From NCBI GenBank assembly GCA_018062705.1, contig JAGORQ010000001.1, forward strand, positions 21,624-85,623: 64,000 nt of DNA, in the 5' to 3' direction. The notes beneath the pieces were generated by a model. It worked only from the letters and a program-made list of their open reading frames with translations, was not told the DNA's origin and did no database searches. Positions 2,495 to 47,040 of the stretch are shown one piece after another. Both the position numbers and the translations under genes were made by a program. The first letter of the stretch is position 1, and each line of letters starts with the position of its first letter. The stretch is from Candidatus Shapirobacteria bacterium (GTDB lineage Bacteria; Patescibacteriota; Microgenomatia; UBA12405).

Positions 2495-4264
2495 ATGAAC
2501 AAAAAATTTTACGTTACCACCCCGATTTATTATATAAACGATGTGCCTCATATTGGGCATACCTGCACTACTGTAGTGGCTGATATTTTGGCGCGAACTC
2601 ATCGCCAGGCGGGAGACGATGTGTTTTTTTTGACGGGGACTGATGAACATGGTCAAAAGGTTGCTGAGTGTGCTGAAAAAGAAGGGTTGGACCCTCAAAC
2701 TTACTGCGATAAAATTGCCCCGACTTTTGAAACTGCTTGGAAAGATTTAAACATTAGCTATGATTATTTTATAAGGACAACAAATCCCCAACACGAAGTT
2801 GTGGTGGCAGAATTGTTGCAGAAAATTTACGATGCGGGTGATGTTTACAAGGCGAAGTATGAAGGGTATTACTGTATTGGTTGTGAGAAATTTTTGACCG
2901 AAACTGACTTGGTCGATGGACACTGCCCACTTCATCCACCGGAGAAGACAGTTAAAAAGTCGGAAGAAAACTGGTTTTTTAAATTGTCAAAGTTTGTCCC
3001 ACAAATTATAGAAATTATTGAAAAAGAAAATTATATTTTCCCGGAAGGAAAGCGAGCTGAGGTGTTGGCAAAATTGAAGGGGGGAGTGACTGACATATCA
3101 CTATCTCGAGAAAATGTGTCATGGGGGATTCCCCTACCGTGGGATAAAAAACAAACTGCGTACGTATGGTTTGATGCCTTAATTAATTACTACAGCGCCA
3201 CCCAATTTGTCGAAGGCAAAAAAGACTTTTGGCCAGCAGATTTGCATTTGCTCGGAAAAGAAATTTTGTGGTTCCACACGGTTATTTGGCAAGCAATGTT
3301 GTTGTCGGCCAAAATTGGGTTGCCAAAAAAGACATATACTCATAGTTTTTATATGATCGACGGACAAAAAATGTCTAAAAGTTTGGGTAATGTGATTAGT
3401 CCGAAACAATTAATAGACTTGTTTGGAGTTGATGGCACCAGATATTTAATCGCCCGATCGTTTCCAGCGGAAAACGATGCTGATGTCGGTATTGGTAGAT
3501 TTGTGGAAAGATATAATGCAGATTTGGCGAACAACTTGGGTAATTTGGTGTCGAGAGTGTGTAAACTCGCAATCAAAATCCCCCTGTCTCCACCGAAGGC
3601 GGAGACCTCCCCCTTTGACGAAAGGGGGACTTATTTGGAATTAGTGAATAGTTTAAAACTGGATGAGGCGATAGGGTGGGTATTTGAAAAATTTATTGAT
3701 AAATCAAACAACAGACTAAATGAGGTGATGCCATGGAAATTGGAGGCAGATGACCCAAAAAGAATCGAGGTGTTGACTGAGTGTGTGAACAACTTAAGAC
3801 AGGTGGCATTTTATTTAAAACCAGTCATGCCTGATGTTTCTAAAAAAATAGAAGATTGTTTTGATGGTGAAGTTAAACCACTAGAAAGTTCGCTTTTTCC
3901 GCGGGTGGAAGTTCCCAAAATGGCTCCAAATTTGTTGATAAATAAAATCGTGATTGGGGAGATAAAAAATATAGAAAAATTGCCAGACAAGACAATTCAA
4001 AAAATTACGGTCGATGTAGGAACCAAAGAACTAAAAATTGTTTGTGGAGATTTAAGTCTAAAAGTTGGCGAAAAAGTACCAGTGGCACTGCCGGGATCGA
4101 GGGTGAATGATGTTAATGGCGGCAAGAGAAAAATTAAAAAAGGCAAGGTTCATGGAGTCGAATCGGAAGGAATGCTGTGCTCTGGGCTGGAACTAGGGAA
4201 AAATAAAGATGGTGAATTAATTTATAGAGTTGAGGGAGTGGTGGGGGAAGAGATAAATGATTGA
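2495..4264 (+). CDS. metG: Methionyl-tRNA synthetase with a C-terminal EMAP/Trbp111-like tRNA-binding domain
   Basis: Carries the class I HIGH motif (PHIGH) and KMSKS (KMSKS) plus the LANNLGNL anticodon-domain motif. The C-terminal ~100 aa are OB-fold tRNA-binding. Confidence 0.9.
   Translation: MNKKFYVTTPIYYINDVPHIGHTCTTVVADILARTHRQAGDDVFFLTGTDEHGQKVAECAEKEGLDPQTYCDKIAPTFETAWKDLNISYDYFIRTTNPQHEVVVAELLQKIYDAGDVYKAKYEGYYCIGCEKFLTETDLVDGHCPLHPPEKTVKKSEENWFFKLSKFVPQIIEIIEKENYIFPEGKRAEVLAKLKGGVTDISLSRENVSWGIPLPWDKKQTAYVWFDALINYYSATQFVEGKKDFWPADLHLLGKEILWFHTVIWQAMLLSAKIGLPKKTYTHSFYMIDGQKMSKSLGNVISPKQLIDLFGVDGTRYLIARSFPAENDADVGIGRFVERYNADLANNLGNLVSRVCKLAIKIPLSPPKAETSPFDERGTYLELVNSLKLDEAIGWVFEKFIDKSNNRLNEVMPWKLEADDPKRIEVLTECVNNLRQVAFYLKPVMPDVSKKIEDCFDGEVKPLESSLFPRVEVPKMAPNLLINKIVIGEIKNIEKLPDKTIQKITVDVGTKELKIVCGDLSLKVGEKVPVALPGSRVNDVNGGKRKIKKGKVHGVESEGMLCSGLELGKNKDGELIYRVEGVVGEEIND
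3577..3630. repeat. Family E two-hairpin element, in-frame inside metG (encodes ~IPLSPPKAETSPFDERGT)
   Basis: aatccccctgtc-[gtctccaccgaaggcggagac]-ctccccctttgacgaaagggggac. It has the same architecture and near-identical flanks as the intergenic copies at 43497 and 46373. Confidence 0.5.
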
Positions 4265-4985
4265 TACACATTGCCACCTAAGAAACACTGAGGATATTAA
4301 AATTAAGGGCCTAGAGTTTGCGGTGTTGTCGGCAAGCAATTTGGAAGACTCAAAAGAAAATGTCAAATTACAAATGTCAAATGACAAATTAAAGGCATCG
4401 GTGGGGGTACATCCGCAAGAATTAATTACTAATTACGAATTACTAATTACTAATTTAGAAGAATTACTAAGTCAAAATAAAGAAATTGTTGCGGTAGGGG
4501 AATGTGGACTAGACTTTAGTGCCGAAAACTACGATAGACATTCTCAAGAAATTATGTTTAGGGCGCAAATTTGTTTGGCTTTGAAATATGATAAGCCGTT
4601 GATAATTCATAGTCGGAAGGCGATGGACGAAACGTTGGAAGTGTTGAAAAGTTACAAAAACTTACGAGGAGCAATTCATTGTTATAGTGGGGGAATTAAG
4701 CGAATTAAAAAAGTTTTGGAGCTACCCGGAGAGTGGTTCTTTGGTATCGATGGAAATTTAACCTATGAAGCGGGATTGCAGGAAGTAGTAAAAAATATAC
4801 CGAAGGACAGGCTAGTGCTCGAGACTGACAGTCCAGAGTTGACCCCCATCCCCCATCGGGGTGAAAAAAATTATCCGGAGTATGTAAAATTTATTTATCA
4901 AAAAGTGGCAGAGATTTGGGTGATGAGCTTGAAAGAAACTGAGGAATTGATTGATGGGAATGCGAAAAGAATTTTTGATATTTAG
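4257..4985 (+). CDS. tatD: TatD family metal-dependent DNase/hydrolase
   Basis: Has the MIDTHCHL N-terminus and other TatD His/Glu/Asp motifs. It overlaps the metG end by 8 nt. Confidence 0.8.
   Translation: MIDTHCHLRNTEDIKIKGLEFAVLSASNLEDSKENVKLQMSNDKLKASVGVHPQELITNYELLITNLEELLSQNKEIVAVGECGLDFSAENYDRHSQEIMFRAQICLALKYDKPLIIHSRKAMDETLEVLKSYKNLRGAIHCYSGGIKRIKKVLELPGEWFFGIDGNLTYEAGLQEVVKNIPKDRLVLETDSPELTPIPHRGEKNYPEYVKFIYQKVAEIWVMSLKETEELIDGNAKRIFDI
4421..4471. repeat. (TTACTAAT)n microsatellite copy inside the tatD coding sequence (encodes ELITNYELLITNLEELL)
   Basis: attaattactaattacgaattactaattactaatttagaagaattactaag. The same octamer repeat occurs at 5986 and 41565. Confidence 0.4.
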
Positions 4986-4986
4986 C

Positions 4987-5229
4987 GGGTTTGGGCAAGC
5001 CAAACCCCTACTTTACCTTGGCTGTATCGGGTTTGGGCAAGCCAAACCCCTACTTTACTTTGGCAACTTTGGGTTTGGGCAAGCCAAACCCCTACTTTAC
5101 CTTGGCTGTATCGGGTTTGGGCAAGCCAAACCCCTACTTTACCTTGGCTGTATCGGGTTTGGGCAAGCCAAACCCCTACTTTACCTTGGCTGTATCGGGT
5201 TTGGGCAAGCCAAACCCCTACTTTACTAA
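4987..5229. repeat. Tandem array of ~5.8 copies of a 42-bp REP-like unit (GGGTTTGGGCAAGCCAAACCCCTACTTTACCTTGGCTGTATC), each with a GGGTTTGG/CCAAACCC hairpin
   Basis: Exact 42-nt periodicity starting at 4987, 5029, 5071, 5113, 5155 and 5197. ORF-track entries 4951..5229 and 4991..5257 are translations of this array. Confidence 0.85.
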
Positions 5230-5231
5230 AA

Positions 5232-5711
5232 TTGTATATGCGACTTTTAAACGGTAGGCATACTATTCGACGACAAAAAGTAGATTACACAAAACCAAAT
5301 TGTTTTATGGTGACCATTTGTGCCAATAAATTTGGTTATTATTTCGAAAAATATCCAGAATTAAAAAAGATTATTGAAGATAATTTATTAAAAATTTCTG
5401 GTGACTTTGCCAATACTAGGTTAGGTGAATATGTGGTAATGCCAAACCATATCCACTTTATATTGACAATGAGATATCAAATAAAAAATGTAAGTTTGGG
5501 GAAAATTATTGCCACATTTAAATCGAGAGTCGTAACTGACTGGCTAAAAGTAATAAACGATCAAAAACTTAATTCTTTAGCAAAAATTTGGCAAAGAAAT
5601 TATCACGAACATATTATTAGAAATAAAGATGAGTTTGAAGCTTACACTAAATATATCGTTAATAATCCAAAAAATTGGCTAAATGATTCATACCACGTTT
5701 CGGTAAAGTAG
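5232..5711 (+). CDS. IS200/IS605-family Y1 HuH transposase, REP-associated tyrosine transposase (RAYT)-like
   Basis: HuH motif (PNHIHFIL), N-terminal KPNCFMVTIC motif, and C-terminal YHEHIIRN...YIVNNPKNW typical of TnpA_REP/RAYT. The gene is flanked by REP copies in inverted orientation. Confidence 0.75.
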   Translation: MYMRLLNGRHTIRRQKVDYTKPNCFMVTICANKFGYYFEKYPELKKIIEDNLLKISGDFANTRLGEYVVMPNHIHFILTMRYQIKNVSLGKIIATFKSRVVTDWLKVINDQKLNSLAKIWQRNYHEHIIRNKDEFEAYTKYIVNNPKNWLNDSYHVSVK

Positions 5712-5748
5712 GGGTTTTGCTTGCCCAAACCCGACTTACTTTAAAAAA
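5711..5748. repeat. Single inverted copy of the 42-bp REP unit immediately 3' of RAYT1
   Basis: ggggttttgcttgcccaaacccgacttacttt is the reverse complement of the unit core GGGTTTGGGCAAGCCAAACCCCTAC, with 2 mismatches. Confidence 0.6.
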
Positions 5749-5978: not shown

Positions 5979-5985
5979 AAAAAAA

Positions 5986-6015
5986 ATTACTAATTACTAA
6001 TTAATAATTACTAAT
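5986..6015. repeat. (TTACTAAT)n microsatellite immediately upstream of the ATG of the minus-strand gene 5736..5978
   Basis: attactaattactaattaataattactaat. Confidence 0.4.
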
Positions 6016-6022
6016 GAGAAAC

Positions 6023-6784
6023 TTAAGTTAGTATAGCAGTAGGTGGTGAAGTTAGATTTTCAAGTAAGCAGGCGATGGTGAGTGGCCCAATACAGCCATA
6101 GGTTGGGGTGATATAGCCAGCTACTTCTGAAACTTCGGTAAAATTTACATCACCACTGGCAGCATCAATCACTATGGCACCGGGTTTGATATAGTCTTTG
6201 GTCACGAGGCCTTTGACGCCGGTGGCAGAAATAAGAAGATCGGCTCCCCTGCTGATTTCTGAGATATTTTTGGTGAATTCATTGCAAAGTGTAACTTGAA
6301 TTTTTTTGGATAATAAAAATTTTTCCAAAGGTTTGCCAATCAAATTTGAATCGTTGATAATTACCGCAGTTTTTACCGTAGGGAGGAGTTGGTATTCAAT
6401 TAGAAGATGAACAATACCTTTAACTACTGCTGGGGTGTAGGGTGAATTTGGAGTAAGCCCATCAACATCTTTCGATTGAACTATGGATGATAAAATTATA
6501 TTTTTGTCAAGATTACTTGGTAGCGGAAGTTGGACAAAAAATCCGGTAACTTGGGGATTATTATTTAGATTATTAATTAGAGAAATGATTTCTTGTTCAG
6601 AAATTGTTTGGGGCAAGGAGTGGATAACACAGTCCTGACCAATCTCTTGGCACTTTTGTTGTTTAAGAGACACATACTTGAGACTGGCAGGATTGTCCCC
6701 CACCAAGATTATGTGGAGTGTGCCTCGAGGCTGGAGATTGGAAATTATTTTATTGGCAAGTGTTTTACCATCAAGAAGTACCAT
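6023..6784 (-). CDS. folD: Bifunctional methylenetetrahydrofolate dehydrogenase/cyclohydrolase
   Basis: LVGDNPASLKYVSLKQQKC, a GxGxxG NAD(P) site and a PGAIVIDAA-type C-terminus. Confidence 0.85.
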   Translation of the reverse strand: MVLLDGKTLANKIISNLQPRGTLHIILVGDNPASLKYVSLKQQKCQEIGQDCVIHSLPQTISEQEIISLINNLNNNPQVTGFFVQLPLPSNLDKNIILSSIVQSKDVDGLTPNSPYTPAVVKGIVHLLIEYQLLPTVKTAVIINDSNLIGKPLEKFLLSKKIQVTLCNEFTKNISEISRGADLLISATGVKGLVTKDYIKPGAIVIDAASGDVNFTEVSEVAGYITPTYGCIGPLTIACLLENLTSPPTAILT

Positions 6785-6792
6785 GGTGTATT

Positions 6793-7371
6793 CTATCTAA
6801 AAATGGTGGAAAAGACATTCCAGACAAAGTGGTTGGCAATGGGAGCGTAAATTGAGCCGGTGACAAAAAATAAATAGATATCAACAAAACCAGATACAAA
6901 GTTACTAATACAATAAGTTAATAAATCGTAACCTGAGTAGTGGAGCTGAAAAATTGCCAGAGGTAGGTGAGTAAAAGTAAAAAATAAACCATTGGCAATT
7001 AGGGCCAGCCATGAGGGCTTAAAAAATTTTAACCAACGATTGAGCAAAAAACCGCGAAAAAATATTTCTTCGGTAAGGGCAGTGGCCAGGCAAACTAAAA
7101 TAGTTAAAAATATTTGGGTTGATTGAAATTCAAAATGTTTGGTAAATAGCCGCTCGAGGGAAAAGACCAAACCAACCCCTAGACCAATTAAAATATTTTG
7201 AAAAACTTTTTTATTAACGAAGCCGAGATTTTTGAATTTGGTGATCAAGTATATCGGTAGTAGCCAAATGAGAGGTTTGAGCAAAAATTCGTCGAGATAT
7301 AAACTTTCAGGAAAAGCTAGTCGATAGAAAGACCAGGTGAGAAAAACAATAAAGGCAATGATGAATGACAC
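6793..7371 (-). CDS. CPBP family (CAAX/Abi) intramembrane metalloprotease
   Basis: EEIFFRGFLL (EExxxR) motif plus FxxxH motif (FTFTHL) in a 6-TM protein. Confidence 0.6.
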   Translation of the reverse strand: MSFIIAFIVFLTWSFYRLAFPESLYLDEFLLKPLIWLLPIYLITKFKNLGFVNKKVFQNILIGLGVGLVFSLERLFTKHFEFQSTQIFLTILVCLATALTEEIFFRGFLLNRWLKFFKPSWLALIANGLFFTFTHLPLAIFQLHYSGYDLLTYCISNFVSGFVDIYLFFVTGSIYAPIANHFVWNVFSTIFR

Positions 7372-7487
7372 AATTTATTTTAATATAGATTCCCGCCTTC
7401 GCGGGAATGACAATTTATTGAAACGGGAATGACGTTTTGTCTGGTCTGGTATAACTTTGGAATTTGATTTAACTTTGATATTTTTTG

Positions 7488-7515
7488 TTAGAGACGCGCC
7501 ATGGTGCGTCTCTAC
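7488..7515. repeat. Family B palindrome (TTAGAGACGCGCC ATG GTGCGTCTCTAC) just 3' of the map stop
   Basis: Perfect inverted repeat. The outer GAGACGC/GCGTCTC stems are shared with 7 other copies. Confidence 0.6.
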
Positions 7516-7525
7516 GGAGAAGATA

Positions 7526-8284
7526 TCAGAGTCGAGTTAATACCTCACAACCATTTTCGGTTATCAAAACAGTATGTTCGAATTGGGCAGAAAGTGAACC
7601 GTCATGAGTGCGGATAGTCCAACCATCATTTTTGTCCAACACTACTTGCCAGTCGGAAGAAGCGTTGACCATTGGCTCAATGGTAAAAATCATGCCTGGT
7701 TTTAAGACAGTGTCGTCGGAACGGTTGGCAAAATGATAAACGAACGGATCTTCGTGAAACTTGACTCCAACGCCGTGCCCACCTAGGTCGCGGACGATAC
7801 CATAACCATATTGACGAAGATAGTTGTCGATAACTTTACCGACACAATCATTGATGTTTTTGCCAGGTCGGAGTGCCGAAATCGCTAAGTCTAGTGATTG
7901 GCGGGTCCGATCGAGCAATTGGGAGGCTTTTTTATCCACCTGACCAACCGGATATGAGGCGGAGGTGTCGCCATAATAACCGTTTAAAATAGTGGTGATA
8001 TCGAGGTTGATGATATCGCCGGTTTTGAGGATATCTTTGGGGGACGGGATACCGTGGCAAACCACATTATTGATAGAAGTGCAGAGGCTTTTGGGGAAGC
8101 CATTGTAATTTAGTGGGGCAGGAATTGCGCCATGATCAAGAATAAATTTATGGACAGCAGTATTTAGTTCTTCAGTTGAAGTCCCCTCTCTGACAAACTT
8201 TGAGGCAAAAATTAGAGTCTCGGCTGCCAATTTAGAAGATTTTCTAATTCCCTCGATTTGTTCGGGAGTTTTGATAATAATCAT
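7526..8284 (-). CDS. map: Methionine aminopeptidase type I
   Basis: Conserved metal-binding D/D/H/E/E context (DIINLDIT, HGVG, FTIEPM, EHTV). Confidence 0.9.
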   Translation of the reverse strand: MIIIKTPEQIEGIRKSSKLAAETLIFASKFVREGTSTEELNTAVHKFILDHGAIPAPLNYNGFPKSLCTSINNVVCHGIPSPKDILKTGDIINLDITTILNGYYGDTSASYPVGQVDKKASQLLDRTRQSLDLAISALRPGKNINDCVGKVIDNYLRQYGYGIVRDLGGHGVGVKFHEDPFVYHFANRSDDTVLKPGMIFTIEPMVNASSDWQVVLDKNDGWTIRTHDGSLSAQFEHTVLITENGCEVLTRL

Positions 8285-8305: not shown

Positions 8306-8402
8306 ATCGTCATTGCGAGGAGTCTTATCATACGATCCCCAAAGGGGACAGGCTACACAATCCCAACGAGATTGCCACGACCTTCGGCCTCGCAATGACG
8401 TT
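8306..8402. repeat. Family C composite element (TCGTCATTGCGAGG ... CAATCCCAACGAGATTGC ... CCTCGCAATGACG) between the deacetylase stop and the map start
   Basis: 13-bp terminal inverted repeats enclose a CCAACGAGATTGC module that is shared with 38199, 54715 and 57268. Confidence 0.5.
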
Positions 8403-10881: not shown

Positions 10882-12197
10882 TATTTGATAATTGAAGCTT
10901 TAACAATAATGCGAGAGTTAGGATAAGTGACACTACAAGTCATTAGGGCAATTTGATCACCAGTTGTCTTAATTGAGTCGACTTGGGATTTGTCGACAAA
11001 AAGCTTGTCGGTGATTTGGTAGGTTGATACCAAACCGTTATTTTCAGTCATGACTTTGTCACCAATATTTAGAGTAAATAACTGGCTAAAGACACCATAG
11101 CCATTGTGGCCGTAGTAGAGGTTGCCCTCACGTAAAACTTCGTTGTGACCGACAATAAATTGATCGCCAATTTTTTGGGGTAAATAAATTGGTTGGTTTA
11201 AATTAAGGGAGGGAATAATTAGCGCTTGATTAGTGTCGAGAGTATTTCCTGAAGGAAGTTTCTCGGTGGAATAGACCACTTCGGCAGTAGCTGCTAATTC
11301 AGAAGAAGTGCCGAGAACTGATCCACCATAACTATTTTTGATGCCATCAATTAGCGGATTGTTGTTTGTTCTAGCTCCTAGTACTCGAAAACCACCAACA
11401 TTTTGGTTGGTACAAACTACATTACTCGGGCTACCACCACGACAACCGTTTTGGGCCTGAACATAAAAACAATATTTGCCACCAGGATTGAGGGCCTTGA
11501 CAGTGTAAGTGGTGACGTTACCAACATTGGGATCACCATATATATAGTTGCCGGTAGTTGGGCCATAACCAACAGCATAGCTAGTGTGATTGCCAGGAGC
11601 ATGATTCCAAGTTAACAAAACTTTACCTCCACCGAGAGCAATGGCCACTAAATTTTGAGGTGCACCGGGATCTGAATCATTGCATGAAGGAGGATTGTTG
11701 TTCGAATTATTTGAAGGTTGAGGGGTTTGATTCTCCACCTGCGCCGTTGGCTCTGGCGAGACAAAGGGTGTGACTGTGGGAATTATTTGACAACTCTCAG
11801 TCTGTTCACAATTTAGAGTTGGAGTAACTGTTGGGGTATTTGATGGAGAAATAGTAGCTGTAGGGCTGGGATTTGAAGTAATCGTGGGTGAGGGAGTTTT
11901 CGTGGCCGTTGGGGTACGAGTGGGTGTGTTGGTAGGGCGACAATCATCATCGTCATGACGACCATGACGGCCATGTTGATTATCGTCACAATCATCATCG
12001 TGATGATTTGAAGTGGGGGTAGGGGTTGGGGTGCGAGTAGGTGTAGGTGTGCGAGTTGAAGTTGGGGTTCGAGTTGGGGTGGGAGAATTCCATTTTGCCT
12101 CAGAAACAATTTTATTCTGAAAAAATTTAGAATTAATAAAGAACACTTCGATTATTGCTAGTGCAACAATCAGACCTGCTTTGATTGTTTTTACCAT
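10881..12197 (-). CDS. Sortase-family transpeptidase with an N-terminal TM, a Pro/Thr-rich linker containing HDDDDC motifs, and an FN3-like domain
   Basis: C-terminal sortase fold with the active-site motif ALMTCS (TLxTC). (TPTRTPTP)n low-complexity region. FN3-like block ([20 protein letters not shown]...YCFYVQAQN). Confidence 0.7.
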
Positions 12198-12296: not shown

Positions 12297-12324
12297 GTAG
12301 AGACGGGGCATGCCCCGTCTCTAC
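12297..12324. repeat. Family B palindrome (GTAGAGACGGGGCATGCCCCGTCTCTAC), intergenic
   Basis: Perfect 28-nt palindrome. Confidence 0.6.
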
Positions 12325-15531: not shown

Positions 15532-15559
15532 GTAGAGACGTTGCGCGCAACGTCTCTAC
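15532..15559. repeat. Family B palindrome (GTAGAGACGTTGCGCGCAACGTCTCTAC) between convergent genes; possible bidirectional terminator
   Basis: Perfect palindrome 12 nt after the DEAD helicase stop, followed by an A-run on + and a T-rich stretch on -. Confidence 0.55.
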
Positions 15560-21533: not shown

Positions 21534-21534
21534 A

Positions 21535-21573
21535 TAGATTTAAGATTTAAGATGTATGATTTAAGAATAGAAC
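21535..21573. repeat. Family D element (TAGATTTAAGATTTAAGATGTATGATTTAAGAATAGAAC) between the RR stop and the HK start
   Basis: Shares more than 80% identity with copies at 23821, 24551, 32913, 39432 and 45654. Confidence 0.6.
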
Positions 21574-23817: not shown

Positions 23818-23820
23818 AAA

Positions 23821-23877
23821 TAGATTTAAGAAATAAGATTTAAGATTCTTGCTGAAGCAAACAAGTATGAATAAGAC
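23821..23877. repeat. Family D element upstream of and overlapping the ABC ATPase start
   Basis: tagatttaagaaataagatttaagattcttgc...aagtatgaataagacaa. Confidence 0.55.
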
Positions 23878-24571
23878 AATAAAAAAAATAGTAATTGAGA
23901 CGAGGAATTTGTCGAAGGTGTATACCGTCGGAGATGTGAAGACGGTGGCACTCGATAAGGTGTCGTTTAACATTGAGCAAGGTGAATTTGTGGCGATAAT
24001 GGGACCATCTGGTTCGGGCAAATCAACTTTGATGCATATTATTGGAGCTCTGGACAAACCAACTGGCGGTCAATATATCTTGGATGGAAGTAATGTAGAA
24101 AATCTGAGTGATGATGAGCTGGCGGAAATTAGAAATAAAAAAATTGGGTTTATTTTTCAGGCGTTTAATTTATTACCCAGGACCACCACAATGAAAAATG
24201 TGATGCTACCAATGAAATATGCTGGGTTGTCGGAAGAAAAACAAAAAGCAACAGCAGAAAAGTTTTTGAAAATGGTGGGATTAGGAGACAGACTAAAACA
24301 TACCAGTAATCAGTTGTCCGGAGGACAACAACAGCGAGTGGCAATTGCTCGGGCACTAGTACTGGACCCGGCAATTATTTTGGCAGATGAGCCAACAGGA
24401 AATATTGCTTCGGCACAGGCGGATGAAATAATGGAGATTTTTGAAAAATTAAATGATGAAGGTCATACCATTGTGATGATTACTCACGAACCAGATATAG
24501 CCAATCATGCTAAAAGGATTATTCATATAAAGGATGGGCAAATATACAAAGATTTAAGAAATAAGATTTAA
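23867..24571 (+). CDS. ABC transporter ATP-binding protein (MacB/LolD-like)
   Basis: Walker A (GPSGSGKST), signature LSGGQQQRV, Walker B (ILADEPTGN). The last 8 codons are encoded by family D copy D3. Confidence 0.85.
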
Positions 24572-24590
24572 GATGTATGAATAAAACAAA
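24551..24590. repeat. Family D element that supplies the C-terminus (KDLRNKI) and TAA stop of the ABC ATPase and precedes the permease ATG
   Basis: gatttaagaaataagatttaagatgtatgaataaaacaaa. Confidence 0.55.
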
Positions 24591-24593
24591 CAC

Positions 24594-28859: not shown

Positions 28860-29503
28860 TGTCGTATTTACAAATAAATGATTTTGATGCGGAGTTAGAG
28901 CAGTTGCAGTTGAAACACGGCAATCCGAGTATCTGTTCAATAAATGGAGCCGGTTGTATTGATAACCCAAGACTATTTCTTTTGTTTATGAATCCGACAG
29001 CAAAAAATGTATCGGCCAACAAAAACTGGAGAGGTTTGAGAGCGCCATGGATTGGGACAAAAAATATTTGGAAACTGCTACTTAAACTTAATTTAATAGA
29101 CAAGGAACAATTTGATAAAACTCAGAAATTAAAACCGACTGAGTGGACAACGGATTTTGCAGAAAGCTTATATAAAACTTTGGCTAATAATAAAATCTAT
29201 TTAAGCAATTTGGCTAAGTGTACTCAGGATGATGCCAGACCACTAAAGAATGCCGTGTTTAGGGAATATTTAGAGCTAACTAAAAAAGAAGTTTATAAAG
29301 TGTCAGCAATAAATATAGTTTCGTTTGGAGTGCAAGTGAGCGAAATTTTACTGGGAAAGAAAATTGAATTGAAAAGTTCGACTGAAGAAGAATTGGTGAT
29401 TGAGGACAAAAAGTTTAATATCTATCCAACTTATTACCCGGTGGGACAAGGAATGAGAAATATGGGTAAAGCGGTGGAGCGAATATCAGCGCTTCTTGGG
29501 TAA
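28859..29503 (+). CDS. Uracil-DNA glycosylase superfamily protein (family 4/5-like)
   Basis: UDG-like motif block (LFLLFMNPTA...) and overall ~210-aa size. The assignment is tentative. Confidence 0.4.
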   Translation: MSYLQINDFDAELEQLQLKHGNPSICSINGAGCIDNPRLFLLFMNPTAKNVSANKNWRGLRAPWIGTKNIWKLLLKLNLIDKEQFDKTQKLKPTEWTTDFAESLYKTLANNKIYLSNLAKCTQDDARPLKNAVFREYLELTKKEVYKVSAINIVSFGVQVSEILLGKKIELKSSTEEELVIEDKKFNIYPTYYPVGQGMRNMGKAVERISALLG

Positions 29504-30397
29504 ATCGTGGTGGAAGATTACTTTGCCAAGAGCTAGAGTCATGGGACGGTTTTTCATGGAGTCAAGAATTATTTTATTTAAATTATCGCGGTACTCAGCG
29601 GTGTCGGCAGACTCAAAATCGGGAATTAGTTCGGGGGAATTTTTTTGAAGATACTCGTAAAGTCGGGTTTTGATTTTGGAACTTTGATTGAGATGTTCAA
29701 ACCAAACTTCGGAAACTCCGGCATGCTGGAGCGCATCGAGCAATTCATTAATGGCTTTTTTATTATTGACAAAATGTGGCAGAATTGGACCGACAAAGGC
29801 GTAAGTGGAAACACCATTATCGTGTAATTGTTTTAGTGCTTCAATGCGAGCAGAAATAGGTGGTGCTAGAGGTTCGAGAAAGCGAGCCACTTGGTCGTCG
29901 AGTGTGGTGACAGTAAAACCAACTTGAACTTTTTTTAATTTTTTTAAAATATCAATATCTTGAGTAACCAAGGGTGATTTTGTTTGAATGCCAATTGCTC
30001 CTTCATAACCAAAATCAACAAAAACTTGAAGACATTGGCGGGTGATATGGTATTTGGCTTCGAGACCGGTGTAGGGGTCGGTGACCGAACTAAAAAAGAT
30101 AAAACCAAAATCTTTTGATGATTTAATTTTATTTTGGTGTGTAGAGACGCCAGGCCTGGCGTCTCTACGAGACAGCTTGTTTAATTCATTTTTTAATAAT
30201 TCAGGCGCGTTGGTTTTGACATCTAAATAACTCCCCCACTCTTCATCGGGGTGATGCCAGCGGGCTATTTGGGCGGCATAGCAGTACGTGCAACCGAGCT
30301 GGCAACCGCCGTAGGAATTAACTACCCAATCGGCACCAGGCAGACCGGATTTGGTGAGGATTGTTTTGGCGGTAATTTCGTTAATTTTGAGGAGCAT
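29486..30397 (-). CDS. Radical SAM protein of the spore-photoproduct-lyase/DNA-photolyase-like (SplB) type, carrying an in-frame family B palindrome insert
   Basis: The CxxxCxxC cluster (CQLGCTYC) near the N-terminus and the overall architecture fit SplB-like rSAM. Residues SRRDARPGVST are encoded by the palindrome at 30141..30168. Confidence 0.55.
   Translation of the reverse strand: MLLKINEITAKTILTKSGLPGADWVVNSYGGCQLGCTYCYAAQIARWHHPDEEWGSYLDVKTNAPELLKNELNKLSRRDARPGVSTHQNKIKSSKDFGFIFFSSVTDPYTGLEAKYHITRQCLQVFVDFGYEGAIGIQTKSPLVTQDIDILKKLKKVQVGFTVTTLDDQVARFLEPLAPPISARIEALKQLHDNGVSTYAFVGPILPHFVNNKKAINELLDALQHAGVSEVWFEHLNQSSKIKTRLYEYLQKNSPELIPDFESADTAEYRDNLNKIILDSMKNRPMTLALGKVIFHHDLPKKR
30141..30168. 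repeat. Family B palindrome (GTAGAGACGCCAGGCCTGGCGTCTCTAC) in-frame inside the radical SAM gene
   Basis: Perfect 28-nt palindrome. The minus-strand reading frame passes through it without a stop. Confidence 0.6.
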
Positions 30398-31588
30398 TTA
30401 TTTTTTGGTAGTTTTGTTAATATAATACTTTTTATTTTTAACTTTATCGGGTAGTAACGATTCGGTGGTGTATTTTTCATACCCTTTGCCGTAGCCGAGG
30501 TCTTTCATCAGATCGGTAGGAGAATTGCGTAAATTCATCGGAATAGGCAAGTTTCCATAGGTCTTGATATCCGCTTGGGCTAAGCGGAGGCCGTCGTAGG
30601 CGGAGCGGTTTTTGGGGGAGAGGGCCAGATAGGTAACCCCATGGGCCAGGTTGATGGCACATTCAGGATAACCAATTTGGGTGACAGCTTGAAAGACTTG
30701 GTTGGCCAACATTAAGGCAGAAGAGTTGGCTACTCCAATATCTTCGGAGGCAAAAATCACCATCCGCCGGGCAATAAACTTGGGGTCCTCCCCCGCTTCA
30801 ACCATCCGTGCCAAGTAATAAAGAGCCGCATCGGGATTTGAGGCACGCATACTTTTAATGAAGGCACTAATAGTGTTGTAGTGTTCCTCGCCTTTTTTGT
30901 CGAAACGTAAATAAGAATTTTGGAGAGTGGATTTGAGAGTGTCGATAGTGATTTTTTGGTAGAGAGTAAAGGCGTTGTCCAACATGGTGATGGCTTGGCG
31001 GGCATCACCGTTGGCCATTTGAATTAGCCAATCTTTGGCTTTTTTGTCAATCCCCCCTTTAGTCCCCCCTTTGACAAGGGGGGAAAGAATATCTATACAG
31101 CGTTTTATTATTTGACCCATTTCATCGTCGGATAATTCTTTGAGAACAAAGACACGGCAGCGGGATAATAATGGAGAAATGACCTCGAAACTGGGATTTT
31201 CGGTGGTGGCACCGATGAGAGTTAGTAGACCTGATTCAACATAAGGCAGGAGAAAATCTTGTTGGGCTTTGTTGAAGCGATGAATTTCGTCTAAAAATAA
31301 TATTTTTTTGTTGAGGCCGGGCTGACCTGACCCAATAATTTTTTTGATATCGTCTTTACTAGCAGAAACAGCTGATAACTCATATAAATCGGCCTGGGAT
31401 TCGTGGGCAATAATTTTGGCGAGAGTAGTTTTACCCACACCGGGTGGGCCCCAAAAAATCATCGAGAAAATCTGATGATTGTCGATAGCCATTTTTAGAG
31501 GCTTCCCCTCCCCGACTAAATGAGTTTGGCCGACAAAGTCGGCTAGGGATTTTGGTCTTAATAGTGAAGCTAAAGGTTGAGTTAACAT
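30398..31588 (-). CDS. rarA: Replication-associated recombination protein A (AAA+ ATPase MgsA/RarA)
   Basis: Walker A (GPPGVGKTT), Walker B ([10 protein letters not shown]), and the characteristic C-terminal MgsA helical domain. Confidence 0.85.
31049..31090. repeat. Degenerate family E-like hairpin (AATCCCCCCTTTAGTCCCCCCTTTGACAAGGGGGGAAAG) in-frame in rarA (encodes ~[14 protein letters not shown])
   Basis: Shares AATCCC...CCCCCTTTGA(C/A)(G/A)AAGGGGG with family E copies. Confidence 0.3.
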
Positions 31589-32908: not shown

Positions 32909-32912
32909 AAAA

Positions 32913-32955
32913 TAGATTTAAGATTTAAGATGTAAGATTTATGAATAAGACAAAG
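32913..32955. repeat. Family D element immediately after the deacetylase stop
   Basis: tagatttaagatttaagatgtaagatttatgaataagacaaag. Confidence 0.55.
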
Positions 32956-38169: not shown

Positions 38170-38198
38170 ATATTTAAAGTATAGCACCACCATACTTT

Positions 38199-38346
38199 CG
38201 TCATTGCGATCCGCCAGTTGGCGGAGTGGCAATCCCAACGAGATTGCTTCGTCCCCTTCGGCTACGCTCAGGGTCCTCGCAATGACCCTTCGACTTCGCT
38301 CACAATCCTCGTTATAACCCTTCGACTTCGCTCAGGGTTATAACGT
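38199..38346. repeat. Family C composite element in a divergent promoter region; includes a duplicated CTTCGACTTCGCTCA(G/C) submodule
   Basis: gtcattgcga...ggcaatcccaacgagattgcttcg...cctcgcaatgacc, then two copies of cttcgacttcgctca. Confidence 0.5.
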
Positions 38347-38351
38347 ATTAT

Positions 38352-39614
38352 ATGGTTATGAAAATATGGTGGATTTTGCTAATTTGTCTGGGAATTAGAC
38401 TTATAGGAATTAATCAATCGTTGTGGCTAGATGAGGCAATATCGGCCAATGTAGCCAAGAATTTTTCCTACCAAGAAATACTGACAAAATTTAGTCCGGG
38501 AGATTTTCACCCGCCAGGATATTATCTGATGTTGAAAACTTGGGGAAGTATTTTTGGTTATTCGGAAATTAGCTTAAGACTAACGTCGGTAATATTTAGT
38601 TTAATAACGATTTATGTGGTTTATTTACTGGGAGGATCGGCTGGTGCAATGCTGGTTGGATTTAATCCCCTGTTAGTGTATTACTCGCAAGAAGTGAGAA
38701 TGTACTCGATGGTGACCATGTGGCTAACTTTGGCGATCTATTTTTTGATAAAAGAAAAATATTGGCTAGTGGGACTATTTTTTGGATTGGCGTTTGGGAC
38801 GTTTTACGGGTCGGTATTTTTGATGGTGGCGGTGTTTATCTATTTAATTGTTAATAAAAAATATAAACCGGCAGGAATCGTAACAATAGTTCCATTGATA
38901 TTCTTGCTAATTATATGGCCATTGATGAGTCAACAACTTCAAAATTCAAAGGTGATGTTGGCCACAGTGTCGGGCTGGAGCCTTGTGCTAGGAAAAGTAA
39001 ATCTGAAAAATTTATTGTTGATTCCGATGAAATTTACGTCGGGGAGAATCAGCTTTTATCCAAAGATTATTTATTATGTTTTGGCGGGAGGATGGTCTAT
39101 ATTTGTGTTTTTTAAAGTGCTTAGTGCTAAGTTCAAAGTGCAAAGCAAAATCTATAGTTTTTTGTTTTGGACTACGTTGGCAATCGGGGTGGTGTTTTCG
39201 ATATTTACCCCTATGTTTGAGTATTTTAGATTTTTGTACTTGATACCAATTATGGCGCTAGCAATAGGGAAAAATAAACTGATAGCCGGAGGGTTTTTGG
39301 CGTGGAGTTTGGTGTATGTACTAAACCCGAGTTTTTATCGAGAAGATTGGAAGAGTGTGGTGGCAGAGTTATCGAAAGACCAACCAGTTTACATGATCAA
39401 ATCATTTGAAGATCCGGTGAGTTATTACAATCTAGATTTAAGATATAAGACGTATGATTTAAGAATAGAACCGAAAGAAAATAGAATAACGGTAATACCC
39501 TATGGTGAGGAGATACATGGAGTGAACCATGTTAAATTGATGGAAAAACAGGGTTATAAAATGGTTGACCAAAAAAATTATCGAGGATTGGTGAGTGAAT
39601 CTTGGAGTCGGTGA
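38352..39614 (+). CDS. GT-C fold glycosyltransferase (GT39/GT83, PMT/ArnT-like) membrane protein
   Basis: DE motif in the first periplasmic loop (LWLDEAISANV) and about 11 TM helices. A family D repeat lies in-frame near the C-terminus. Confidence 0.6.
   Translation: MVMKIWWILLICLGIRLIGINQSLWLDEAISANVAKNFSYQEILTKFSPGDFHPPGYYLMLKTWGSIFGYSEISLRLTSVIFSLITIYVVYLLGGSAGAMLVGFNPLLVYYSQEVRMYSMVTMWLTLAIYFLIKEKYWLVGLFFGLAFGTFYGSVFLMVAVFIYLIVNKKYKPAGIVTIVPLIFLLIIWPLMSQQLQNSKVMLATVSGWSLVLGKVNLKNLLLIPMKFTSGRISFYPKIIYYVLAGGWSIFVFFKVLSAKFKVQSKIYSFLFWTTLAIGVVFSIFTPMFEYFRFLYLIPIMALAIGKNKLIAGGFLAWSLVYVLNPSFYREDWKSVVAELSKDQPVYMIKSFEDPVSYYNLDLRYKTYDLRIEPKENRITVIPYGEEIHGVNHVKLMEKQGYKMVDQKNYRGLVSESWSR
39432..39472. 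repeat. Family D element in-frame inside the GT39 gene (encodes LDLRYKTYDLRIEP)
   Basis: tagatttaagatataagacgtatgatttaagaatagaacc. Confidence 0.55.
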
Positions 39615-41557: not shown

Positions 41558-41564
41558 GTGTTTT

Positions 41565-41598
41565 TAATTACTAATTACTAATTACTAATTACTAATTT
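41565..41598. repeat. (TTACTAAT)n microsatellite in the divergent promoter region between the rluB-like gene and the nuclease gene
   Basis: taattactaattactaattactaattactaattt. Confidence 0.4.
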
Positions 41599-42513: not shown

Positions 42514-42900
42514 ATGGCGAAGATTTTTGTAATACACCCAGAATGTATTAATATAGATTTAAGACTCAATTTACATTTACAATACAGACCACACCAGCTT
42601 GATGTTTTATCTCAAATTAAAACCATAACAAAAAATGCAAGGAACCTAGTTGTGATAGATGATTATGATTTAGAAAATACCCCAAAAGATGGTGATGTAT
42701 ATTTATTGGAAGAAGGTCCAACTCGACTGGTAGCAGGCTGTATAGTCAGAAAAGATGAGGCAATATTCATTGGTGCTTACACTGAAAAATGTGTTTCAGA
42801 AGCTGCCAATGTCGCAAGACGTGCTGGTGCAATCGTAACTATTAATAGAAAGCTAACTGTGCCACTAGATCCTAGATTATATTCTGAAATATTAAAATAG
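42514..42900 (+). CDS. Small isochorismatase-family-like (cysteine hydrolase-like) protein
   Basis: IGAYTEKCVSEAANVARRAGAIVTI resembles the isochorismatase catalytic-Cys block, but the protein is short (~128 aa). Confidence 0.3.
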   Translation: MAKIFVIHPECINIDLRLNLHLQYRPHQLDVLSQIKTITKNARNLVVIDDYDLENTPKDGDVYLLEEGPTRLVAGCIVRKDEAIFIGAYTEKCVSEAANVARRAGAIVTINRKLTVPLDPRLYSEILK

Positions 42901-43494
42901 TCCTAGTTGTGGTGCTTCAACTTTTTTGGGATAGGAAAAGTCGACCGGAAAGGTGCGGATAGTGTTCCATTTGTCCATGAATTTTAGTTGCTTGTTTTTG
43001 AGGCCAAAATCGTAGACTTCCTTGGTAACCTGGACATCAGCTTCGCAATATTTTTTTAATTTGGCAAGCGATTCGGCCGAGTGCTCCGCCCAATACTTAA
43101 CAGCGTTGAGACCATGATCGATTTTGGTGTGGCCGAGGGTTTCGGCGGCCAAATTCCCCAGACCAATTCTAAAACCGAGTGATAATTTAATCGGATCCAT
43201 TAGGTCAAAATGATTTAATTTTTTAAAATCATAAGGAGCTAGCGGAGCCATGGCCGGCACATCAAAATGAAGAGAATTGAAACCAATTATCCGATCGACA
43301 TTGGTAAATATTGGCCACATTTTGGGAAAATCTTCTTCCCAAAAACTCATCATTTGTCCATCGATTTCATTTAGATTATCGTCGAGAGTGCGTTTGAAAA
43401 CAGAGATAATGGAGATACCCAAATCGGCCGGATCGCCAGTGGCGATATCGTCAAATATTTTTTTGGTTTCGATGTCAAAAAAAACTTCAATCAT
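42892..43494 (-). CDS. DEDDh-type 3'-5' exonuclease (DnaQ-like fold)
   Basis: FDIET (Exo I), HFDVP (Exo II), and H...D in the C-terminal block. Confidence 0.5.
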   Translation of the reverse strand: MIEVFFDIETKKIFDDIATGDPADLGISIISVFKRTLDDNLNEIDGQMMSFWEEDFPKMWPIFTNVDRIIGFNSLHFDVPAMAPLAPYDFKKLNHFDLMDPIKLSLGFRIGLGNLAAETLGHTKIDHGLNAVKYWAEHSAESLAKLKKYCEADVQVTKEVYDFGLKNKQLKFMDKWNTIRTFPVDFSYPKKVEAPQLGLF

Positions 43495-43496
43495 AA

Positions 43497-43549
43497 ATCC
43501 CTCTGTCCTGCGGTCGCCGGACCTCTCCCTTTGAAGAAAGGGAGAAATA
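43497..43549. repeat. Family E two-hairpin element immediately 5' of the exonuclease ATG
   Basis: aatccctctgtc-[ctgcggtcgccggac]-ctctccctttgaagaaagggagaaataac. Confidence 0.55.
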
Positions 43550-44139: not shown

Positions 44140-44191
44140 TTTTTATAATAAATTTTAACTACTACAACTGTAGTATTAGTTAAGACAAATG

Positions 44192-45653: not shown

Positions 45654-45698
45654 GATTTAAGAAGTAAGATTTAAGATGTATGAATAAAACAAAAAAAC
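45654..45698. repeat. Family D element abutting the start codon of the minus-strand small gene
   Basis: gatttaagaagtaagatttaagatgtatgaataaaacaaaaaaac. Confidence 0.55.
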
Positions 45699-45705
45699 AT
45701 AGGTC

Positions 45706-45735
45706 ATTCCCGCGGAGGCGGGAATCTAATTTTTT
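45706..45735 (+). terminator. 8-bp GC hairpin (ATTCCCGC GGAG GCGGGAAT) plus T-run; terminator-like with no obvious upstream + gene
   Basis: A similar hairpin attcccgccttcgcgggaat occurs at 7389..7408. Confidence 0.3.
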
Positions 45736-45737
45736 AA

Positions 45738-45805
45738 ATCTCCCTCGGCTGCGCCGCATCCCTCATCTCTGCTGAGACATCTTCGACTTTGATGAAAGAG
45801 GGACT
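45738..45805. repeat. Divergent family E-like element
   Basis: aaatctccctcggctgcgccgcatccctcatctctgctgagacatcttcgactttgatgaaagagggact. Confidence 0.3.
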
Positions 45806-46024
45806 ATAAGGTAAATTTATACTATACCGAAGAAAAGCCGAAGTCAAGAGATATTAGATTTCAAAAACTTTGAAAATATACAATAAGTACGAAACATATG
45901 AGGATAAGTAATACTATCTTAGTTGCACAAACTAAAAAAGAGGTATAATACCTGCTGTAGAGAAGTTTCTGTCAAGCAAAGTTAGTTGAAAAGAGGTCGC
46001 TACAGATTATTAATTTTTACTAAA

Positions 46025-46372
46025 ATGGTAAAAAAATTGTATGTCGGCGGCTTGTCATTTTCGACAACTGATGACACTTTGAGAGCGGCATTCGCTCAAG
46101 CTGGAACCGTCGTTTCAGCAGTAGTTATTAAAGATAAATTCTCCGGTCAATCAAAAGGCTTTGGATTTGTGGAAATGGATTCGGAAGAGTCCGCACAAGC
46201 AGCTATTGATATGTGGAATGAGAAAGAATTGGATGGTCGCACCGTTAAGGTGAACGAGGCTCGTCCAATGGAAGAGAGACCCCCACGACGTGATAATTAC
46301 TCTCGTGGTCCTAGCCGACAAGGTTTCGGTGGTGGTTCACAAGGTGGTTACGGTGGTGGTTCAAGATACTAA
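46025..46372 (+). CDS. RRM-domain RNA-binding protein with a Gly-rich C-terminal tail
   Basis: RNP-2 (LYVGGL) and RNP-1 (KGFGFVEM). The promoter TATAAT at ~45936 predicts a ~85-nt 5' UTR that contains an inverted repeat. Confidence 0.8.
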   Translation: MVKKLYVGGLSFSTTDDTLRAAFAQAGTVVSAVVIKDKFSGQSKGFGFVEMDSEESAQAAIDMWNEKELDGRTVKVNEARPMEERPPRRDNYSRGPSRQGFGGGSQGGYGGGSRY

Positions 46373-46421
46373 AATCCCTCTGTCAGCGTTGCTGACATCT
46401 CCCTTTGAAGAAAGGGAGAAC
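46373..46421. repeat. Family E two-hairpin element immediately 3' of the RRM gene stop
   Basis: aatccctctgtc-[agcgttgctgacat]-ctccctttgaagaaagggagaacc. Confidence 0.55.
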
Positions 46422-46423
46422 CT

Positions 46424-46452
46424 AAAAAAACCCGTCGCAAGACGGGTTTTTT
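46424..46452. terminator. Rho-independent terminator, bidirectional (A-run, CCCGTC GCAA GACGGG, T-run)
   Basis: aaaaaaacccgtcgcaagacgggtttttt. Confidence 0.7.
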
Positions 46453-46475
46453 GATGGATTTTAAAATGTACCCAA

Positions 46476-46501
46476 AGAGACGCATTGCAATGCGTCTCTA
46501 C
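46476..46501. repeat. Family B palindrome (AGAGACGCATTGCAATGCGTCTCTAC) overlapping the RAYT2 stop codon
   Basis: Perfect palindrome. The minus-strand TAG of RAYT2 lies inside it. Confidence 0.6.
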
Positions 46502-47040
46502 AATTTGGAAAATAATCTGTCCTTTTGCCAGTTTTTGGGGTTGTTTCTGATGTAGTATTTGATTTGAGTTAACCGTTTTTCGTCGTGAATAATTTCGTCA
46601 TAAAAACGAGGTTGCCAGGCGAAATAAATATTATGTTTTTTGCAGATGCGTTTGACGGCACCTTTGAAGGATTTGATGGTTTGGGAAATTGTTTGGATTG
46701 ATTTGGAATTTATATCTTGATAAAAATCTGGGTGGTTCCGATGGCTATGGATAAATATTGGCGTTGGGGAACTTTCGTGTAGAGACGCATGGCAATGCGT
46801 CTCTACAGGGATATCCCGAATGGTGATTAGCAGGTGAACATGGTTGGGCATGACCACCCAGGGGTTGATAATTAAAGATTTTCGAATAGAGATGGTTTTG
46901 ATTAATTCATCAACAGCAATTTGACCCCTATCCGATAATTCCATTTTTCCGTTGATAATTTTGCCAAAGAAATTGTTATGGTTGTAGGTGCAGATGGTGA
47001 TGAAGTAAAAGCCAGGTGTGGAGTAGTCCCAACCATTCAA
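46498..47040 (-). CDS. IS200/IS605-family HuH Y1 transposase (RAYT-like), second copy, carrying an in-frame family B palindrome
   Basis: YFITICTYN N-terminal motif, HuH (PNHVHLLIT), C-terminal YYIRNNPKNW. Residues VETHCHASLH are encoded by the palindrome at 46779..46806. Confidence 0.7.
   Translation of the reverse strand: MNGWDYSTPGFYFITICTYNHNNFFGKIINGKMELSDRGQIAVDELIKTISIRKSLIINPWVVMPNHVHLLITIRDIPVETHCHASLHESSPTPIFIHSHRNHPDFYQDINSKSIQTISQTIKSFKGAVKRICKKHNIYFAWQPRFYDEIIHDEKRLTQIKYYIRNNPKNWQKDRLFSKL
46779..46806. repeat. Family B palindrome (GTAGAGACGCATGGCAATGCGTCTCTAC) in-frame inside RAYT2
   Basis: Differs by 1 nt from the copy at 46476. Confidence 0.6.

Follow-up and report, generated by a model that had tools for sequence, protein, structure and literature searches.

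Short dispersed repeats lie in frame inside conserved housekeeping genes, at variable loops of the encoded proteins, in a 64,000-nt stretch of a Candidatus Shapirobacteria genome (Patescibacteria; contig JAGORQ010000001.1, positions 21,624 to 85,623; this whole stretch is referred to here as the window). Our preferred explanation, to which we give a probability of roughly 0.7, is that selfish repeats land anywhere and survive within genes where they stay in frame in tolerated variable loops, with one family, B, being mobilised by a transposase encoded in the window, RAYT2 (RAYT, REP-associated tyrosine transposase; REP, repetitive extragenic palindrome). Four short-repeat families are dispersed over the window (GC content ~39%), all in copy numbers beyond chance when observed and expected counts are compared. 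Structure prediction folds families B and E as hairpins, whereas the AT-rich family D and an AATTACT heptamer are non-palindromic and do not fold. About six of the ~60 genes bear a repeat, and the inserts in the radical-SAM enzyme, RarA and MetRS are specific to the lineage.

Three of these families had been noted in an initial annotation, which described palindromic elements inserted in frame into housekeeping genes in the manner of Rickettsia palindromic elements (RPEs). All of the elements and their stop-free peptides proved to lie in the host frame where it had placed them, Pfam searches agreed with its host identities (MetRS, radical SAM/SPL-like, MgsA/RarA, PMT_2 (GT39), ABC_tran and Y1_Tnp), and near-identical intergenic copies exist. 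The likeness to RPEs stands for MetRS, RarA, the radical-SAM enzyme and RAYT2 and extends to TatD, where a fourth family, the heptamer at 4422-4456, had been missed in addition to B, E and D; it fails for a GT39 glycosyltransferase and is trivial for an ABC ATPase. The host genes and their in-frame copies are as follows.

2495-4264, plus strand: metG, encoding MetRS (589 aa; Pfam tRNA-synt_1g 1e-97; homologues 73-78% identical in Candidatus Shapirobacteria)
3577-3630, plus strand: family E, long form in metG, two hairpins (z = -3.2)
4257-4985, plus strand: tatD, encoding a TatD DNase (Pfam TatD_DNase 2e-61)
4422-4456, plus strand: (AATTACT/G)n heptamer in frame in tatD (LITNYELLITN)
29486-30397, minus strand: radical-SAM gene (SPL-like, 'DNA repair photolyase'; Pfam Radical_SAM; 100% identical to an NCBI radical SAM protein of Candidatus Shapirobacteria)
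30141-30168: family B, perfect 28-nt palindrome in frame in the radical-SAM gene (RRDARPGVST; hairpin z = -4.9)
30398-31588, minus strand: rarA/mgsA, encoding an AAA+ ATPase (396 aa; Pfam MgsA_C 6e-51; solved E. coli RarA 3pvs 1e-90)
31049-31084, plus strand (antisense to rarA): family E, short form in rarA
46498-47040, minus strand: RAYT2 (tnpA_REP, subclass 2.4-like; Pfam Y1_Tnp 4e-6; PNHVHLL, WQPRFYD and YIRNNP)
46779-46806: family B REP in frame in RAYT2 (VETHCHASLH), 10 aa past the HuH motif

The radical-SAM enzyme has 303 residues in the window, against about 290 in nearly all of the ~120 orthologues listed. Its net gain of 13 residues, with RRDARPGVSTHQN inserted and LSRRDARPGVSTHQNK as the junction peptide, is absent from ~118 of those orthologues, which bears out the annotated in-frame insertion of a family B palindrome. 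The AlphaFold model places residues 80-91 in a loop with a predicted local distance difference test score (pLDDT) below 50, after a helix (64-78) and before a strand (100-103); a sequence search of solved structures returned no match for this protein. One homologue (P0142, locus L085) retains a decayed family B copy at the same codon.

Family B comprises GTAGAGACG, a variable self-complementary centre and CGTCTCTAC, and has eight copies in the 64 kb where none is expected. The centres differ in each copy and are always palindromic, giving perfect hairpins with stems of 12-16 bp (z = -4.9 and -8.0). Four of the eight copies have both the GTAG and the CTAC foot, while the other four retain the CTAC side only. 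Further copies are present in related Patescibacteria loci, and those of the window outside the two host genes are listed here.

7488-7515, 12297-12324, 15532-15559, 53495-53522 and 53612-53638: family B REPs, intergenic
46474-46501: family B REP at the RAYT2 stop codon, abutting or overlapping it

We had considered the copy at 53495-53522 as a further in-frame case, in an open reading frame (ORF) at 53002-53625, and rejected it: the ORF has no Pfam match and the copy falls within its first 43 codons. A second copy (53612-53638) lies at the start of this ORF, 117 nt from the first; the ORF start has probably been called too far upstream, and the pair is more likely an intergenic REP dimer ahead of the actual start codon.

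On its sequence features, family B is a "double-foot" GTAG REP of TnpA_REP/RAYT subclass 2.4, with RAYT2 as its predicted cognate enzyme. Quentin, Siguier, Chandler and Fichant (2018; PMC6006769) define this subclass by the motifs NH[IFV]H, WQ and YIxNNP and by double-foot REPs, and give in-frame REP copies inside tnpA_REP, between HuH and Y, as a hallmark. In family B, as in subclass 2.4 (group 4 of Bertels), a GC-rich hairpin is bordered by a GTAG foot at its 5′ and a CTAC foot at its 3′ end, and RAYT2 has the three motifs together with an in-frame REP between the HuH and Tyr motifs, as the initial annotation had it. Unlike that subclass, which has been described mainly in Cyanobacteria and Bacteroidetes, the host is a member of the Patescibacteria with ~39% GC, the palindrome centre differs in every B copy, and of the REPs expected on both sides of tnpA_REP one is seen at RAYT2: a copy abuts the stop codon (46474-46501) and none occurs in the 55 nt upstream of the gene. 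The RAYT2 family is very large (17,755 homologues); a transposase of Chryseobacterium and a protein that JGI annotates as "RayT" are among those with a name. Among 37 aligned homologues the region past the HuH motif varies in length and often spells out VETxxxASL or CRDxxxxVST, corresponding to the two open frames of family B, with zero to three copies per protein; the DNA of six further Patescibacteria RAYT loci likewise contains B copies past this motif. Directly upstream of RAYT2, the conserved RAYT N-terminal motif FAEKYRxESNRL is readable in frame at 47041-47094 (minus strand). Same-subclass RAYT genes with one to three internal B copies each adjoin rarA on its downstream side in five loci of related genomes (L003, L004, L005, L007 and L008), and the neighbour of rarA in the window is the radical-SAM gene, not a RAYT gene.

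The window encodes a second enzyme of this kind, which lacks an internal REP.

5232-5711, plus strand: RAYT1 (tnpA_REP, 159 aa; Pfam Y1_Tnp; tblastn to RAYT2 1e-9; NHIH, WQ and YIVNNP)
4986-5226, plus strand: 42-nt tandem array (~6 units) of a single-foot GTAG REP (GTAGGGGTTTGGCTTGCCCAAACCC on the minus strand)
5702-5734: inverted copy of the RAYT1 REP GTAGGGGTTTGGCTTGCCCAAACCC at the end of RAYT1

RAYT1 and its GTAG-GGG...CCC REP array fit the other REP type of subclass 2.4. The two form a second REPtron, in which the array begins directly after the tatD stop codon and precedes RAYT1.

Family E combines AATCCCYCT with a variable hairpin (GTC...GAC), which may be missing, and a second one, TCYCCCTTTGA-N-AAAGGGRGA, whose 5′ arm is made of pyrimidines and whose 3′ arm is made of purines. 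The window has three copies of the long form and one of the short form against none expected, and the two copies outside the host genes are as follows.

43495-43546, plus strand: family E, long form, in an intergenic spacer with a minus-strand gene on either side
46371-46420, plus strand: family E, long form, ~1 nt past the stop codon of an RRM-protein gene (z = -7.2)

Copies in other loci fetched for comparison were found by a generic hairpin scan; two strict regular-expression scans missed most of them. The purine arm of the second hairpin (AGAGGGA / GGGAGA) lies 4-5 nt before an ATG at two places, namely 43494-43546 of the window in the minus reading and ~11700-11745 of locus L002, and may provide the gene at 42892-43494 with its ribosome-binding site.

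The E copy of metG contains AATCCCCCT, a variable first hairpin and a second hairpin TCCCCCTTTGACGAAAGGGGGA, and is read as residues 361-379 of MetRS (KIPLSPPKAETSPFDERGT). A variable segment follows the SRVCKL helix in all relatives, with a baseline length of 23 residues (GEGLKINNQEVIIDNKY type); in the window it spans 28 residues encoded by the long E form, with IPLSPPKAETSPFDER as the junction peptide. Among 101 homologues, 30 have an E-type loop (consensus NPSKSPFDKGDF). On a rough neighbour-joining tree their distribution requires at least 17 state changes, whereas shuffles needed 26 on average and never fewer than 21. The window protein and its sister P0001 (locus L086) are E-type on this tree and their neighbours baseline-type. 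The element is therefore a lineage-specific replacement within a native loop, a derived state in a baseline clade: the two in-frame hairpins of the initial annotation were upheld, but the 18-residue gain read there is in fact a replacement of most of the 23-residue loop, with a net gain of five. The AlphaFold model shows the insert as a low-confidence coil between helices 333-358 and 376-385, and T. thermophilus MetRS has a 19-residue loop at the same point. Family E also recurs in locus L002, where 5 kb hold copies in the metG loop, within the tatD reading frame and between genes; the conserved TatD N-terminus lies upstream of the element there, hence its in-frame position.

In rarA the element is the short form (AATCCCCCCTTTAG and TCCCCCCTTTGACAAGGGGGGA) with a perfect 9-bp hairpin, so that the earlier description of an in-frame copy was right and its label "degenerate" was not. 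The net insertion is 24 nt, or eight residues, relative to the RarA of locus L004, which shares 91.6% protein identity and is without the element. In locus L084, whose RarA is 75.8% identical, the same loop is occupied by an E element of the same orientation; the solved E. coli RarA (3pvs) shows a long loop at the corresponding place. Three further loci (L005, L015 and L085, at 6437-7624) hold a different repeat-like insert (VSPDEALAKAGH, VSPAKIAKLSAG, LPAVALAKAG) in the same RarA loop.

The heptamer occurs as four to five units at three loci, with eight overlapping pattern matches where none is expected; besides the tatD array there are two intergenic ones.

5983-6017 and 41564-41598: (AATTACT/G)n heptamer, intergenic

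The TatD segment follows the GVHPQE motif and amounts to a net gain of four residues over two relatives, and in the relative L086 the same place is occupied by (AAATTAC)n. We also considered the ITNYELRI loops in the MetRS of relatives as independent heptamer insertions and rejected them: the baseline of the clade already fits L.I.N.EL.I, which makes the direction of change ambiguous.

Family D is AT-rich, with an imperfect 7-nt periodicity of GATTTAA type (GATTTAAGATTTAAGATGTATGATTTAAGAATAGAAC), and is present at six loci against 0.15 expected. It had been described as palindromic with the others; however, no structure is predicted for it (z = 0.0 and +0.9), so it is not palindromic. Its copies, and the two genes concerned, are these.

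21534-21573, plus strand: family D at a response-regulator / histidine-kinase junction
near 23820-23848, 32912-32950 and 45654-45690: family D, other intergenic copies
23849-24571, plus strand: ABC ATPase gene (Pfam ABC_tran)
24551-24585, plus strand: family D at the 3′ end of the ABC ATPase gene, supplying DLRNKI and the stop
38352-39614, plus strand: GT39 / PMT_2 glycosyltransferase gene (Pfam PMT_2; 100% identical to an NCBI Shapirobacteria protein, GT39)
39432-39472, plus strand: D-like stretch in the GT39 gene (LDLRYKTYDLRIEP)

The junction of the response-regulator and histidine-kinase genes measures 55 nt with the D copy, against an 8-nt spacer in L086, and at sites other than the GT39 and ABC ATPase genes family D is a real dispersed insertion. 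In the ABC ATPase it is a trivial 3′-end overlap: homology to solved nucleotide-binding domains stops at residue 235, and the D-derived tail beyond the conserved domain is not conserved. The copy does supply the C-terminal codons and the stop, as annotated, but these are six codons (DLRNKI*) and not eight. The GT39 case, read initially as a D insertion, is refuted because orthologues carry homologous residues at the same positions, the very observation that the initial annotation had named as counting against it. They align across the stretch, in which D[IL]R is conserved and a 2-aa indel is the sole gap, and in the 63%-identical orthologue of L084 the D consensus is matched at 33 of 37 nt at the same position (hand count). 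Judged from this alignment, the stretch is not a lineage-specific insertion.

GT39 is also the point from which one could argue that the genic elements in general are ancestral protein segments whose likeness to the intergenic repeats is secondary, arising by convergence, slippage or gene conversion. The shared D[IL]R and DNA motif would agree with this, as would the resemblance of the baseline MetRS pattern L.I.N.EL.I to heptamer-encoded ITNYELRI (one relative has four perfect AATTACG units) and the similar-length loops of canonical MetRS and RarA at these points. We nevertheless consider it improbable. Nearly all orthologues are without the radical-SAM and RarA inserts, including the one of 91.6% identity, so that empty-site alleles are already at hand in relatives for both genes; the E-type MetRS loops are derived on the tree; and perfect 28-nt palindromes identical to intergenic copies cannot converge.

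Read by hand, two of the three frames of family B, five of the six of family E and one of the three forward frames of family D are free of stops, and the genic copies use open frames only, with net lengths that are multiples of three (also read by hand). This argues for translation of the inserts, and the low-confidence coils that AlphaFold places between helices or strands agree with the earlier suggestion that they are tolerated at loops. Metagenome assembly or annotation artefacts, or pseudogene hosts, are an unlikely origin of the inserts. Elements of 28-54 nt are shorter than typical sequencing reads (our own estimate), the frames stay open with conserved domains continuing on either side, and independent assemblies from other samples have the same kind of insert at the same loops. 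Although the source is a metagenome-assembled genome and the start codon of RAYT2 is doubtful, we give this explanation the least credence of all. Removal of the elements before the mature protein is formed, by an intron- or intein-like process or by translational bypass, seems very improbable to us. Patescibacteria are known for insertions in rRNA genes, and stable hairpins can in principle promote bypassing. However, every genic copy has a stop-free frame and a net length divisible by three, which would be required only of translated sequence; neither intron nor intein signatures were seen, and the Rfam search had no matches.

The exact B pattern was matched in metagenome contigs at least 130 times on at least 120 contigs, with GC contents from 0.28 to 0.67, and among the matches listed at least 53 copies lie in ORFs of at least 100 aa. 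The apparent hosts, assigned by reading translations and not by domain search, are TatD, LigA, a UvrD-like helicase, histidine kinases and Bacteroidota-type secreted proteins; the TatD copy occupies the same loop as the heptamer in the window. One 616-aa ORF (L097, 171-1520) has four in-frame B copies alternating between VETRLIASLQ and GRDAINRVST and looks like a restriction-modification methyltransferase. GC-rich perfect hairpins number 72 across 816 kb of Patescibacteria loci, some chance palindromes and copies inside RAYT genes included; 28 of them (39%) lie in ORFs of at least 150 aa, which make up 83.5% of the bases. Hairpins are under-represented in ORFs, a depletion that fits purifying selection with substantial leakage.

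The preferred explanation, selfish insertion followed by selection, could proceed as follows. By analogy with IS200/IS605 and TnpA_REP, RAYT2 probably moves family B copies at the replication fork in the form of hairpins of single-stranded DNA; family E possibly also spreads through single-stranded DNA. Insertions would land anywhere, and those that break genes would be purged. The survivors would be copies with a stop-free frame and a net length divisible by three in a solvent-exposed variable loop, which in the window would be those in MetRS, RarA, the radical-SAM enzyme, TatD and RAYT2 itself, and their peptides are predicted to be translated and neutral. The 13 oriented copies in the window (four of E, six of D and three of the heptamer) are without exception on the plus, G-rich strand, with surrounding genes on both strands, and the E copies of four other genomes are likewise on the G-rich strand. 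GC skew is positive from position 1 to ~60 kb and negative at 60001-64000, where GC content goes up to 0.44. According to PMC6006769, the lagging-strand template is where Y1 HuH enzymes act on single-stranded DNA, and the uniform polarity appears to agree with such an action.

Several observations weigh against this explanation. No transposase could be linked to family E, family D or the heptamer. At the B and E junctions inspected by eye (radical-SAM, RarA and intergenic B copies) we saw no target-site duplications and no shared or clear target motif; for B and E, identity as miniature inverted-repeat transposable elements was likewise rejected, given plain hairpins of at most 54 nt without direct-repeat duplications by eye. 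RAYT2 has no ATG, GTG or TTG between its upstream N-terminal motif and the preceding stop, so that it may be inactive; the gene may have an unusual start codon or N-terminal damage. The MetRS and TatD copies are shared with a relative that is only 69% identical in DNA, with hairpins or periodicity intact and compensatory changes, which is unexpected for simple neutral relics. Repeated hits on the same loops could stem from targeting and not from selection alone, the GT39 copy misfits an insertion model, and translation of the inserts is a prediction.

The state of the family E stems bears on whether the genic hairpins are kept for a function, as a lagging-strand-template DNA site or as mRNA structure tuning translation or stability, with particular loops being targeted. 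The second hairpin has a perfect stem of 8-10 bp in 10 of 11 copies, with C:G/T:A swaps at at least five positions and the pyrimidine arm 5′ in every copy. L086 MetRS carries a short E form whose hairpin differs from that of the window by a compensatory pair, C-to-T and G-to-A, and the MetRS-loop copies of the window, L086, L002 and L003 differ from one another by compensatory changes. Stems kept in this way indicate either structural constraint or repeated re-seeding from master copies, which leaves a functional reading some probability; it would also be favoured by the position of all 13 oriented copies on the G-rich strand regardless of gene strand, with E likewise in the four other genomes, and by the filling of the same MetRS, RarA and TatD loops in lineages that are not mutually closest. 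We consider it rather unlikely all the same. Re-insertion or gene conversion from the master copies of each genome also gives the compensatory pattern, and single-stranded DNA transposition predicts a strand bias without a host function. The host proteins and loop sequences are very diverse, many close relatives are without inserts and show no sign of harm, the radical-SAM copy of L085 has decayed, and the copies are few, those in MetRS not being independent. A related possibility, to which we accord slightly more room but hold only tentatively, is that E and possibly other oriented families are an uncharacterised class of replication-coupled single-stranded DNA elements of Patescibacteria, with no known transposase, that repeatedly rewrite the MetRS, RarA and TatD loops, their hairpins within coding sequence being actively maintained by selection or by master-copy conversion.

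Small repeats of comparable kinds have been described in other bacteria. Cyanobacteria are said to contain hairpin repeats of ~20-30 nt, often nested, as well as dispersed tandem 7-nt repeats (short tandemly repeated repetitive sequences, STRR), in work attributed to Elhai and colleagues (2008) and Mazel and colleagues (1990). The window resembles them in its very small hairpins and in head-to-tail heptamers at dispersed loci; it differs in sequence and phylum and in the prominence of in-frame residence in housekeeping enzymes. RPEs, as Ogata and colleagues reportedly set out in 2000, are selfish palindromic repeats of the small, reduced Rickettsia genome that sit in frame within conserved genes, where the protein surface is encoded. 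They encode 30-50 residues. The window shares with them in-frame insertion into conserved ORFs at tolerated positions (radical-SAM, RarA and MetRS). However, its elements measure 28-54 nt and encode 8-19 residues in a different phylum, family B has an identifiable predicted cognate transposase, and no sequence resemblance to the Rickettsia-specific RPE-1 to RPE-8 was noticed, no formal comparison having been made. Delihas (2011; PMC3184786), reviewing internal and 3′-terminal repeat-ORF fusions, tabulates RPEs at ~105-146 bp.

The initial annotation did not recognise such insertions as described for this type of genome, which is too strong a statement given PMC6006769 and the survey of Di Nocera, De Gregorio and Rocco (2013; PMC3733652). 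That survey reports REPs in frame across diverse bacteria outside Rickettsia, with tRNA synthetase and repair genes among the hosts. The repeats of the window resemble these GTAG/CGTC REPs in being short, in lying within known ORFs that remain unbroken, and in having tRNA synthetase, repair and replication hosts; some of the surveyed REPs are at the same site in related species and others extend ORF ends. Covering 2013-era complete genomes from eight phyla, the survey has, as far as it was read, no Patescibacteria and no GTAGAGACG family, and untagged family E and the heptamer families are not among the repeats it covers. The phenomenon is thus already known in other bacteria, and family B belongs to a described REP/RAYT subclass. 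We found no account of such in-frame repeats in the literature on Patescibacteria, the Candidate Phyla Radiation or Microgenomates, and did not find descriptions of the Patescibacteria setting and density, of untagged family E, of recurrent colonisation of the same loops, of compensatory upkeep of genic hairpins or of uniform strand polarity.

The window contains a few other repeats. Rfam (gathering thresholds) and a tRNA scan gave no matches over its length. A further dispersed family (CCAACGAGATTGC...CCTTCGACTTCGCTCAGGATCGCAATGAC) has copies at 8307-8399, 38198-38349, 54704-54773 and 57255-57338, apparently all intergenic, and forms a 32-nt tandem triplet directly upstream of the GT39 start. 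At 46424-46452, between an E copy and a B copy, lies a GC-rich hairpin with runs of A and T on its flanks (AAAAAAACCCGTCGCAAGACGGGTTTTTT). It separates the RRM-protein gene from RAYT2, two genes that converge here, and has the look of a bidirectional terminator. Two 59-nt stretches (60900-60958 and 63936-63994) are 81% identical at a distance of 3,036 nt, perhaps within paralogous large genes.

Patescibacteria genomes are tiny and thought to be streamlined, yet about one gene in ten here carries a repeat that is predicted to be translated, which suggests that micro-elements still shape core proteins. Many odd low-complexity peptides in Patescibacteria annotations, such as VETxxxASL, SPFDKGD and ITNYELR, are explained by these repeats, and the inserted segments, being non-homologous, should be masked in annotation and phylogenomics. 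The recurrent hits on the same loops and the uniform strand polarity offer a testable handle on how REP-like hairpins move. If family E and its like do repeatedly rewrite such loops, the elements would be a standing source of loop variation in minimal proteomes and not passive debris.

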